DNA of 64,000 nt from assembly GCF_044324875.1 (NCBI RefSeq), contig NZ_CP172185.1. One strand, written 5' to 3'. The notes under the pieces were generated by a model that saw nothing but the letters and a program-made list of their open reading frames with translations, was not told the origin of the DNA and ran no database searches. The position numbers and the translations under genes are program-made. Positions 11,051-61,165 of this stretch are shown piece after piece. This DNA comes from Escherichia coli (GTDB lineage Bacteria; Pseudomonadota; Gammaproteobacteria; Enterobacterales; Enterobacteriaceae). Positions within the stretch are counted from its first letter, which is position 1, and each line of letters begins with the position of its first letter.

Positions 11051-12016
11051 TCATCCAACCCGCTGCTTATCATGCCGATAATTCACCCAGGCGTTGATAA
11101 TAAACGTCATCACCAGAATGCCAAACACCACGCCCAGCGAGACGGCGATTGGAATATGGTAGAAGTCGACAATCAGCATCTTGATACCGATAAACACCAG
11201 AATCACCGCCAGGCCATATTTGAGCATCGAGAAACGTTCTGCTACGCCCGCCAGCAGGAAATACATCGCACGCAGGCCGAGGATCGCAAACAGGTTTGAG
11301 GTCAGCACAATAAACGGATCGGTGGTCACGGCGAAGATAGCCGGAATGCTATCCACGGCGAAAATCACGTCGCTCAATTCCACCAGAATCAGCACCAGCA
11401 TCAGCGGCGTGGCATACAGCAAGCCATTCTTACGCACAAAGAAATGCTCGTTGTCGATGGTGTCGGTCATGCGCAAATGACCGCGCAGCCAGCGCACCAG
11501 CGGCTTGTCGCCAATGCCTGATTCATCTTCATGGGCCAGCGCCATCTTCACGCCGGTAAACAGCAGGAAGGCACCGAAGATATACAGGATCCAGTCGAAC
11601 TGCGAAATCAGCCAACTGCCAGTGAAGATCATGATGGTACGCAGAACAATCGCCCCGAGTACGCCATACACCAGCACGCGCCGTTGTAACGCCGCCGGAA
11701 CAGAGAAATAGCTGAACAACATCAGCCAGACAAAGACGTTATCGACCGCCAGCGATTTCTCAATCAGATAACCTGTGAGAAAGGCCAGTGCCTGTGGATC
11801 GGCAACGGCGCGACCTTCGGTTTGCACCAGATACCACCAGAAAGCGGCGTTAAACAGTAACGACAGCGTCACCCAGACCAGCGACCAGGCCGCAGCCTGT
11901 TTCATGGTCATGGCATGTGCCCCACGACGCCCCTGCAACAACAGGTCGATAGCCAGCATAATGGCGACAACAACAGCGAATCCGCCCCATAGCAACGGCG
12001 TGCCGACAGTATTCAT
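11051..12016 (-). CDS. alx: TerC-family membrane protein Alx
   Basis: Track ORF 321 aa [32 protein letters not shown]... Confidence 0.9.
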
Positions 12017-12240
12017 AGAAGTTCCTTACACATAAAAAAACGGCCAACGTCGGAAGACGTCAGCCGCTGCTTTTTATGCATAGACCTCGCCTTCCGGCAA
12101 GGTCTCACTTACAACAAAAAAGGAATACGTCTGCGTATTCCTTTCGGGTTGCCCGGTGACCGGATGTGGTTTTGCACACATCGTAATGACGATCGACCGG
12201 CAATGAAGTTACTCCCCTTTGCAGGTAACAAAGTATGACA
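12017..12240 (-). promoter_or_regulatory. alx leader: yybP-ykoY-type (Mn2+/alkaline-pH responsive) riboswitch with two terminator-like hairpins
   Basis: Minus-strand RNA contains AAAGGGGAGUAAC (12211-12223), hairpin GGAAUACGCAGACGUAUUCC + U6 (12121-12142), and hairpin ACGUCUUCCGACGU + GGCCGUUUUUUUAUG immediately before the alx AUG (12034-12061). Confidence 0.7.
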
Positions 12241-12298
12241 GACCATTCAGTCAGTCAATGGTCTGTTACATACCTTTTACATTGTTTTACTTTGGCAA

Positions 12299-48929: not shown

Positions 48930-49058
48930 TAGGCCGGATAAGGCGTTCACGCCGCATCCGGCAATCAACGCCTGATGCGACGCTCGCGCGTCTTATCAGG
49001 CCTACAACTGTCGTTGACATGTAGCCGGATAAGGCGTTTACGCCGCATCCGGCAAAAT
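48930..49058. repeat. BIME: three REP palindromes in alternating orientation between uppP and cca
   Basis: GTAGGCCGGATAAGGCGTTCACGCCGCATCCGGCAATC / GCCTGATGCGACGCTCGCGCGTCTTATCAGGCCTAC / GTAGCCGGATAAGGCGTTTACGCCGCATCCGGCAAAAT. Confidence 0.8.
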
Positions 49059-56877: not shown

Positions 56878-56956
56878 CCGGAAAGCGGTTCACAGATCTC
56901 GCTTCGAACCTGGCAGGCCTATTGACGCTGTTTTTTTTCAACCTAAAGTAAAGGAA

Positions 56957-57100
56957 CAAGGGTGAGGGAGGATTTCTCCCCCCTCTGATTGGCTGTTAAT
57001 AAGCTGCGAAACTTACGAGTAACAACACAATCAGTATGATGACCAGCTTCATCATAACCCTTTCCTTATACAAGGCCCCTTCTTCGGGAGGGGCTTTCCC
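56957..57100 (+). ncRNA. sibE: Sib-family antisense sRNA (antitoxin), hldE-proximal copy; ends approximate
   Basis: Promoter TTGACG(56922)-N16-TAAAGT(56944); terminator GCCCCUUC-UUCG-GGAGGGGC + UUU at ~57076-57100; fully overlaps the opposite-strand ibs ORF; symbol assigned by position, from memory. Confidence 0.55.
56996..57055 (-). CDS. ibsE: Ibs-family 19-aa hydrophobic type I toxin peptide (MMKLVIILIVLLLVSFAAY)
   Basis: Reverse-strand ATGATGAAGCTGGTCATCATACTGATTGTGTTGTTACTCGTAAGTTTCGCAGCTTATTAA; too short for the ORF track; which ibs paralog is a positional guess. Confidence 0.65.
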   Translation of the reverse strand: MMKLVIILIVLLLVSFAAY

Positions 57101-57332
57101 GTTTCAGCCCCTTGCTGACTCCCCGATTGTTGATGAGCGCCAGACCCCGCGCAATGCTTTCCCTGATGCAGTTTTGCCTTCCCCGAGCCGTCACGCAAAA
57201 TGCTGCAACAGCCTGATCATTTGCACCTTTTAGCGGAACGCAGATATAAAAAATCCCCGGCTTTTTGGGCCAGGGATGTGGGATAGAGAAACCTTCTTGA
57301 CGCTGATTTTTTTTCAACCTAAAGTAAAGGAA

Positions 57333-57478
57333 CAAGGGTAAGGGAGGATTTCTCCCCCCTCTGAATTGGTTGTTAATAAGCCTGGAAACTTACTAGTAAC
57401 AACACAATCAGTATGATGACGAGCTTCATCATAACCCTTTCCTTCTATAAGGCCCCTTCTTCGGGAGGGGCTTTCCCG
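57333..57478 (+). ncRNA. sibD: Sib-family antisense sRNA (antitoxin), yqiK-proximal copy; ends approximate
   Basis: Promoter TTGACG(57297)-N17-TAAAGT(57320); same UUCG-loop terminator at ~57452-57478; symbol assigned by position, from memory. Confidence 0.55.
57373..57432 (-). CDS. ibsD: Ibs-family 19-aa hydrophobic type I toxin peptide (MMKLVIILIVLLLVSFQAY)
   Basis: Reverse-strand ATGATGAAGCTCGTCATCATACTGATTGTGTTGTTACTAGTAAGTTTCCAGGCTTATTAA; differs from copy 1 at residue 17 (A vs Q) and by synonymous changes. Confidence 0.65.
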   Translation of the reverse strand: MMKLVIILIVLLLVSFQAY

Positions 57479-60904: not shown

Positions 60905-61165
60905 AGTGAACCCGCTTATTCTCAGGGCGGGGCGAAATTCCCCACCGGCGGTAAATCAACTCAGTTGAAAGCCCGCGAGCGCTTTGGGTGCGAACTCAAA
61001 GGACAGCAGATCCGGTGTAATTCCGGGGCCGACGGTTAGAGTCCGGATGGGAGAGAGTAACGATTCTGTCGGGCATGGACCCGCTCACGTTATTTTGGCT
61101 ATATGCCGCCACTCCTAAGACTGCCCTGATTCTGGTAACCATAATTTTAGTGAGGTTTTTTTACC
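60905..61165 (+). promoter_or_regulatory. FMN riboswitch (RFN element) leader of ribB
   Basis: Conserved RFN segments AGGGCGGGGCGAAATTCCCCACCGGCGGTAAA ... AGCCCGCGAGCGC ... GGACAGCAGATCCGGTGTAATTCCGGGGCCGACGGTTAGAGTCCGGATGGGAGAGAG upstream of ribB ATG. Confidence 0.8.

Follow-up and report, generated by a model that had tools for sequence, protein, structure and literature searches.

Positions 12223-12017 on the minus strand of a 64,000-nucleotide stretch of Escherichia coli DNA (contig NZ_CP172185.1, called the window below) are almost certainly the 5' leader of alx, named the pH-responsive element (PRE) or SraF, a Mn2+-sensing yybP-ykoY riboswitch built on a three-way junction without a P2 helix and joined to a two-state expression platform. 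The element, its ligand, both conformers and both terminators have been published in detail, and the finding, including the pair of terminators, is thus already known. The sequence elements, the folds and the covariation (P1.2, P3, P4, hairpin D and the C/D helix) described here come from our analysis, and the response to Mn2+ and pH and the termination efficiencies were taken from the literature. An earlier note on the same DNA, made from its letters alone, had placed a yybP-ykoY-type riboswitch in 12017-12240, and this identification was borne out by the core elements, the covariation, the TerC-family exporter gene downstream and the literature. The range does cover the leader and in addition takes in 17 nt of promoter, as the RNA starts at 12223. 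The Mn2+- and alkaline-pH-responsive control of alx claimed in the note agrees with published work, which states that a yybP-ykoY riboswitch governs access to the ribosome-binding site (RBS) (PMC12153347, PMC9472077, PMC10197570, PMC3874183).

The leader stretch sits between ygjR and alx in the matching E. coli genomes, the same layout as in K-12, and the 371 bases around it (11950-12320) matched 5419 of 5426 complete E. coli genomes at 95-100% identity. The Alx product matched the Pfam family TerC (PF03741, E = 1.3e-53). Compared with K-12 MG1655 over 12011-12295, the window had four single-base differences (12282, 12251, 12174 and 12169) and zero indels. Two of these (12174 and 12169) fall in the terminal loop of P3.2 and the other two are upstream of the transcript start, with no functional element affected. 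The K-12 leader has reportedly been studied by Nechooshtan (2009/2014), Dambach (2015), Stephen and Mishanina (2022), Sharma and Mishanina (2023-24) and Stephen (2025). Since there are no indels relative to K-12, the published numbering transfers directly to the window, where nucleotide n of the papers is coordinate 12224 - n. This conversion placed A11, C36, A37, C58, C73/A74, A132, C135 and A137 on the correct base (PMC12153347, PMC9472077, PMC3874183), and the published termination sites at 110 and 190 nt mapped to the ends of the U tracts in the window. The MG1655 record and the E. coli records annotated by PGAP carried no riboswitch or small RNA (sRNA) feature at the alx leader.

The layout of the aptamer was read from the sequence against the E. 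coli mntP aptamer and against the minimum free energy (MFE) fold (Table 1). The conserved segment that the earlier note had pointed to, AAAGGGGAGUA, was found by direct reading at 12220-12210. The conserved 5' strand of L1 (GGGGAGUAG) was present within AAAGGGGAGUAAC at 12220-12208, with UUGGGGAGUAGC as the consensus of the Rfam family RF00080 and a core shared by mntP. The 3' strand of L1 was bracketed by P1.1 and P1.2 and reads GAGACC in alx and GGCGAGACC in mntP. P3 carried the 7-nt one-sided L3 between P3.1 and P3.2 with nothing opposite, as UCAUUAC, the consensus L3 being ACAUACU. A37 has been described as the metal-site adenosine of the alx aptamer (PMC12153347). P4 lies right before the 3' strand of P1.2, and a metal-exporter gene follows the leader; most related loci likewise have an Alx homologue (37-99% identity) on their downstream side.

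Related leaders were collected by a pattern scan of species-representative genomes (AGGGGAGTA, a gap of 14-28 nt, TCATTAC, a gap of 55-85 nt and GAGACC), which returned at least 120 loci. Among the matches listed, the first gap (L1 to L3) was 17-27 nt and mostly 18-23 nt; a gap that is narrow and not spread over the allowed range indicates that the loci are homologues and not chance matches. The window and 73 Enterobacterales leaders (74 in total) were aligned with MAFFT (alignment A1) and pairs were counted for the E. coli structures. P3.1 was paired in 97.6% of cells with 5 of its 10 pairs compensatory and P3.2 in 91% with all 6 of 6, jointly 11 compensatory pairs. For P4, 76% of cells were paired, a value that reflects the poor handling of length variation by MAFFT, and 13 of 16 pairs were compensatory despite the large differences in length. 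Hairpin D was paired in 87% of cells (7 of 13 pairs compensatory) and hairpin C in 94%, the latter with no compensatory pairs and essentially invariant in the 74 leaders. P1.1 and P1.2 were invariant within the Enterobacterales leaders. Across the at least 120 loci, which come from several phyla, P1.2 was read alignment-free from the fixed motifs and occurred in many compensatory versions, among them ACUU/AAGU, GCUC/GAGC, CUCC/GGAG, ACUC/GAGU, CCCG/CGGG and UCCC/GGGA.

The alternative C/D helix was paired in 95.8% of cells versus 40-54% when the partner was slid, and compensatory changes occurred at four pairs in 35 cells (CGGAAG/CUUCCG, CAGAAG/CUUCUG, CGAAUG/CAUUCG and CGAAAG/CUUUCG). The inactive fold leaves these nucleotides in loops, and their covariation is for this reason direct evidence for the second conformer and for hairpin D as a regulated terminator.

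Both U-tract hairpins of the earlier note were recovered. Direct reading placed the first, GGAAUACGCAGACGUAUUCC, at 12141-12122 with U6 at 12121-12116, and the segments given for the second at 12060-12047 (ACGUCUUCCGACGU) and 12045-12034 (GGCCGUUUUUUU). The extent of the second hairpin had to be revised, as its stem comprises 13 bp (AGCGGCUGACGUC / GACGUUGGCCGUU, 12068-12039) and the GGCC that had been placed after the hairpin belongs inside this stem. A terminator-pattern scan of the minus strand returned exactly these two sites, B and D, versus 0.5 +/- 0.8 expected in shuffles; terminator B was scored with a 12-bp stem, 4 GC pairs and the tail UUGUUGUAAG and terminator D with a 13-bp stem, 7 GC pairs and the tail UUUUUAUGUG. 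Each consists of a G+C-containing stem-loop followed by a U tract, the arrangement of an intrinsic terminator. Hairpin B folded at -13.9 kcal/mol (z -7.35 versus shuffles) and hairpin D at -20.4 kcal/mol (z -5.59), in line with a z of about -5 to -7 for the individual hairpins of the leader, and the entire leader had an MFE of -96.3 kcal/mol versus -58.7 +/- 4.2 in shuffles (z -8.97). The remark that two U-tract hairpins in one leader are unusual was a fair one, although two intrinsic terminators had already been described here. They were labelled TB and TD, rho-independent terminators, in a study that also described the C/D stem (PMC3874183).

The AUG directly past U7 (12033-12031), which had been taken for the start of alx, is not its start codon; alx begins at the AUG further downstream that is preceded by the Shine-Dalgarno (SD) sequence AAGGA (Table 1). 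Pairing within the lower extension of hairpin D (AUGCAUAAAAAGC / GUUUUUUUAUGUGU) accounts for the AUG past U7; with this pairing of A tract and U tract, the hairpin can span 12081-12028 at -28.4 kcal/mol. The same AUG opens a 6-codon open reading frame (ORF), MCKELL* (12013-12033, minus strand), whose UGA overlaps the alx AUG (AUGA). A functional upstream ORF was considered and rejected, as it is not conserved, reading AUG-UAA in Klebsiella and Raoultella and running in frame with alx in Citrobacter.

Published measurements describe hairpins B and D as characteristic intrinsic terminators whose products persist in a chase, with NusA enhancing site B (PMC9472077). Release in vitro at site B (~108 nt) was ~46% at pH 7.2 and ~43% at pH 8.5, and at site D (~190 nt) ~13% at pH 7.2 and ~10% at pH 8.5 (PMC9472077). 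The hairpins could instead serve only as the structural helices P4 and P6; each U run would then be the 3' side of a lower stem rich in A:U pairs, and termination in cells would not reach a meaningful level. Each U tract does have an A tract upstream with which it can pair (GAAAGG opposite CCUUUU in P4, and the two strands named above under hairpin D), and U6 in E. coli is the 3' strand of an A:U-rich lower P4 weakened by two C-U mismatches. In most genera, moreover, the U run of P4 is replaced by other sequence while the helix is retained. We nevertheless consider this explanation unlikely in view of the persistent release (43-46% and 10-13%) in vitro, the termination sites placed at 110 and 190 nt with a fall in sequencing depth past both (PMC12153347), the raised output of a transcriptional reporter when the PRE is deleted (PMC10197570), and the U tract past hairpin D that is kept in nearly all of the aligned Enterobacterales leaders.

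Hairpin D with its U-rich tract was found in 71 of the 74 Enterobacterales leaders (A1 columns 239-290), the exceptions being three Edwardsiella sequences, and in Citrobacter, Kluyvera, Erwinia and Lonsdalea the U-rich tract follows hairpin D in the alignment. Among the 74 aligned leaders (A1 columns 101-158), a stable upper P4 hairpin followed by at least five U's was limited to the E. coli sequences and a single Citrobacter. A second Citrobacter (L122, too short to align) also has the upper P4 hairpin and a U run, and weaker versions of terminator B occur in Pseudenterobacter, one metagenome-assembled genome (MAG) and Enterobacter/Lelliottia. Other genera retain the P4 helix with UUUGUUG, UUUAUAG or unrelated sequence as its 3' strand. 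The two terminators are not equivalent in their distribution, and on a simple evolutionary reading D would be part of the conserved switch and B a late, local addition. Such a reading could guide which terminator to mutate when transcriptional and translational control are dissected.

The leader MFE fold reproduced the published inactive fold, RBS:L1 pairing included. In this fold AAG (12027-12025) and ACUUC (12022-12018) of the ribosome-binding region pair with the L1/P1.2 5' nucleotides 12215-12206. The mechanism that we propose from these structures starts without Mn2+ at neutral pH, where the 3' strands of L1 and P1.1 would be captured in hairpin C (P5). Hairpin D (P6) and U7 would then terminate a fraction of the transcripts at about nt 190, and in the read-through RNA the freed 5' strand of L1 would pair with the SD region and lead to poor translation. 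With Mn2+, L1 would dock on L3 and P1.1 would be held in the aptamer such that hairpin C cannot form. The C/D helix would form instead, between the 3' half of hairpin C with its loop and the 5' half of hairpin D with its own, by which terminator D would be lost and the RBS freed. Terminator B, in the upper P4, may act as a constitutive partial stop upstream of this decision that caps alx output. Since it is transcribed before the 3' strand of L1, it cannot depend on the completed aptamer or on its ligand. We infer this attenuator role from where the terminator lies, how little its efficiency differs between the two pH values (PMC9472077) and how narrowly it is distributed.

The published expression data concern both levels of control. 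An alx translational reporter was up 68-fold at alkaline pH and 21-fold with 500 uM MnCl2, and a transcriptional reporter was up 5-fold at alkaline pH and 2.7-fold with Mn, with PRE deletion raising transcription (PMC10197570). Cytoplasmic Mn2+ rises at alkaline pH (PMC10197570) and Mn-dependent probing changes have been reported for the alx leader (PMC12153347). A purely pH-sensing RNA, in which alkaline pH lengthens RNA polymerase pauses to give the active fold and Mn2+ binding has no role, was the original model of the PRE, and mutations that shift the first pause site do change expression 2-6-fold (PMC3874183). Alkaline pH did not, however, lengthen the pause dwell times (PMC9472077), the pH response was reported to require Mn binding (PMC12153347), and the leader has a complete, covarying Mn-aptamer core, which together leave the pH-only model very improbable.

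A further possibility is that the main product is a stand-alone sRNA, SraF, which would end at terminator D or B and act in trans; its position upstream of alx would then be incidental. An sRNA screen detected a small RNA immediately upstream of alx (cited in PMC9472077), and terminators B and D would yield discrete products of ~110 and ~190 nt. The RNA is, however, continuous with the alx mRNA, whose translation it controls in cis (PMC10197570, PMC3874183). Across phyla the element goes together with Alx homologues, and no trans target was found in the papers on the leader cited here. Action in trans is on these grounds extremely doubtful, and a riboswitch acting in cis on alx is preferred.

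Several observations weigh against this riboswitch reading or parts of it. The P2 helix and the four-way junction were not found, and the 5 unpaired nt (CAUUG) between P1.2 and P3.1 leave no room for P2, giving a three-way junction; the gap from L1 to L3 is likewise 17-23 nt in nearly all of the at least 120 related loci. P2 was not treated as obligatory for the family because the alx aptamer has been described as a three-way-junction yybP-ykoY member without P2, with the L3 consensus UCAUUAC, an intrinsic termination site in P4 and a P6 terminator (PMC12153347). The RBS:L1 pairing was paired in 49-85% of cells with no compensatory pairs and with one-sided changes, so that its comparative support is weak. 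Probing in vitro showed both conformers sampled with and without Mn (PMC12153347), and the switch is therefore a population shift and not all-or-none. Terminator B is not conserved beyond Escherichia and a few relatives, and any role that it has is lineage-specific or incidental. Finally, RF00080 (Rfam 15, 'Manganese') gave no match at the gathering threshold in the whole window, at E <= 1 in 6 kb or at E <= 10 in 371 nt, and the leader thus did not score the 45 bits of the family.

The covariance-model scan that the earlier note had proposed as a check therefore brought no RF00080 match, and it brought no refutation either. As a control, the crystallised aptamer of E. coli mntP (L002 5462-5558) scored 41.6 bits, short of the gathering score (45) of the very family it belongs to, and among 17 alx-type leaders of other genera the model gave one sub-threshold match (18.4 bits, E = 0.55) so that 17 of 17 were missed. 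With mntP below threshold and all of these related leaders missed, the negative result does not refute the assignment; it is a limit of the model, in a test without power that is uninformative on the alx leader. The printed RF00080 consensus models P2, P3 and P4 and ends before the 3' strand of L1. Weak Rfam matches to STnc370, STnc240 and others (E 0.3-10) were rejected as generic hairpin-plus-U-tract shapes. It could still be asked whether the leader is no yybP-ykoY riboswitch at all and shares the short GGGGAGUA motif by chance, as the missing P2 helix and the absence of an RF00080 match at any threshold tried would allow. Set against this are the control and the missed leaders just described, three motifs at fixed spacing in at least 120 loci with covariation of P1.2 and P3, the TerC gene downstream, and a crystal structure of a Lactococcus lactis aptamer with the alx L3 (PDB 6CC1, cited in PMC12153347); the probability of a chance motif is accordingly close to nil. 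For alx-type yybP-ykoY candidates the lack of an Rfam match is no ground for dismissal, and genome annotation based on RF00080 may leave alx-type Mn riboswitches unmarked.

The alx-like riboswitches have been said to be exclusive to Enterobacteriales (PMC12153347). Contrary to this, among the matches listed the P2-less UCAUUAC aptamer was also found in Aeromonas, Xanthomonadales, Betaproteobacteria MAGs, Paenibacillus and several Actinobacteria, with an Alx homologue of 37-60% identity downstream in most of these non-Enterobacterales loci. At least 11 of the loci were from Aeromonas (for example L007/L012), where hairpin C, the terminator at hairpin D and complementary loops (CGAGAG/CUCUCG) are all present. 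The Xanthomonadales genera with an alx-type aptamer were Xanthomonas (L020/L040), Stenotrophomonas, Thermomonas and Luteimonas, and Actinobacteria examples included Rathayibacter (L006) and Mycolicibacterium (L110). In Rummeliibacillus UCAUUAC was combined with a P2 hairpin, and Paenibacillus massiliensis NZ_KB898196.1 had two UCAUUAC-type copies (L063 and L064) ~5.5 kb apart on one contig. We consider it likely from these comparisons that the alx type is a cross-phylum subclass (Enterobacterales, Aeromonas, Xanthomonadales, Betaproteobacteria, Paenibacillus and Actinobacteria), P2-less, with UCAUUAC and an Alx-like TerC gene, that is systematically missed by Rfam. Terminator D and the C/D antiterminator would then be ancestral to Enterobacterales and Aeromonas, and terminator B would be recent in the Escherichia lineage. 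If this is true, alx-type riboswitches go unannotated as a consequence of the current Rfam model.

Table 1. Features of the alx leader and gene in the window (MFE, minimum free energy; SD, Shine-Dalgarno sequence)
Feature	Coordinates	Strand	Basis or remark
alx promoter (putative): -35 TTGACT 12258-12253, 17-nt spacer, -10 TACTTT 12235-12230	12230-12258	minus	by reading; position suits +1 at 12223
Transcript +1 (published numbering)	12223	minus	numbering fit
Mn2+ aptamer, three-way-junction yybP-ykoY variant	12097-12222	minus	sequence; three-way-junction description from PMC12153347
P1.1, GCAA / UUGC	12222-12219 / 12100-12097	minus	
L1 5' strand, (AAA)GGGGAGUA	12218-12210	minus	
P1.2, ACUU / AAGU	12209-12206 / 12110-12107	minus	covariation
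Junction, CAUUG	12205-12201	minus	
P3 (P3.1 + P3.2), 7-nt L3 bulge UCAUUAC 12189-12183	12153-12200	minus	MFE fold, covariation
P4 helix; upper 12 bp (12145-12118) + U6 (12121-12116) = terminator B	12111-12152	minus	whole P4 -19.4 kcal/mol
L1 3' strand, GAGACC	12106-12101	minus	
P5 = hairpin C, AGACCUUGCC paired with GGCGAGGUCU; would capture L1 and P1.1 3' strands without Mn2+	12082-12105	minus	fold -18.1 kcal/mol; PMC12153347
Alternative C/D helix, 12096-12083 with 12065-12051, proposed active conformer; would destroy P5 and terminator D	12051-12096	minus	comparative; model from PMC3874183, PMC12153347
P6 = hairpin D = terminator D: 13-bp stem 12068-12039, last pairs enter U7 (12040-12034)	12034-12068	minus	pattern scan, fold
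Ribosome-binding region; SD AAGGA 12027-12023	12018-12027	minus	MFE fold; model from PMC12153347
alx coding sequence, 321 aa, TerC-family Mn2+ exporter	11051-12016	minus	ORF; AUG 12016-12014

Several other features were noted around the leader and elsewhere in the window. A promoter consensus scan of the minus strand did not call the alx promoter, which was located by reading and from the published +1. A perfect 10-bp inverted repeat (ACAGACCATT / AATGGTCTGT) lies at 12238-12266 on the minus strand, 33 nt past the ygjR stop codon; its loop holds the -35 hexamer TTGACT of alx (12258-12253), and the folding energy of its RNA form is -13.1 kcal/mol (z -4.8). This repeat may form the terminator of ygjR or be bound by a protein over the promoter of alx. 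A promoter-like sequence, TTTACA-18-TATAGT (12276-12305, plus strand, 10 of 12 matches), is directed into the 3' end of ygjR in antisense and is a consensus match only. Elsewhere in the window, matches at the Rfam gathering level comprised two SIB RNAs, an FMN riboswitch, naRNA4 and one tRNA, which together occupy 56922-57070, 57297-57447, 60914-61062 and 48932-49002 on the plus strand and 36524-36596 on the minus strand.

The closest known system is the alx leader of E. coli K-12, which is the same locus and in which L1, L3, P4/terminator B, P5, P6/terminator D and the RBS are identical to those in the window. The mntP leader of E. coli, a canonical four-way-junction Mn2+ riboswitch whose aptamer has been crystallised in the apo form (PDB 4Y1M, PMC12153347), has L1 strands (GGGGAGUA and GAGACC) identical to those of alx. 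In both leaders P1.2 flanks L1, as GCC/GGC in mntP and ACUU/AAGU in alx, P3 carries a 7-nt bulge, P4 stands directly before the 3' strand of L1 and the elements follow in the same order, and both are translational ON switches for a Mn exporter. Unlike alx, mntP has a P2 helix (AUUUCC...GGAAAU), an L3 of ACAUACU and no terminators inside the leader, and it is not pH-responsive (PMC12153347, PMC10197570). Xanthomonas mirrors the mntP and alx pair of E. coli, with a four-way-junction aptamer of the ACAUACU type (the crystallised one, 10.1101/553354) beside an alx-type aptamer.

The transcriptional yybP-ykoY riboswitches of Firmicutes, represented by the two Paenibacillus copies in our set (L063/L064) and by L. 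lactis and Bacillus subtilis in the literature, offer a second comparison. The hairpin that captures GAGACC and the 3' strand of P1.1 takes the same form in both systems, as GAGACCUUUGCC...GGCAAAGGUCUC in Paenibacillus and as GAGACCUUGCC GGAA GGCGAGGUCU (P5) in alx. In Paenibacillus the capturing hairpin is itself the terminator and is directly followed by UUUUCUUUU, whereas in alx P5 lacks a U tract, and both the terminator and the link to the RBS belong to another hairpin, D, further downstream.

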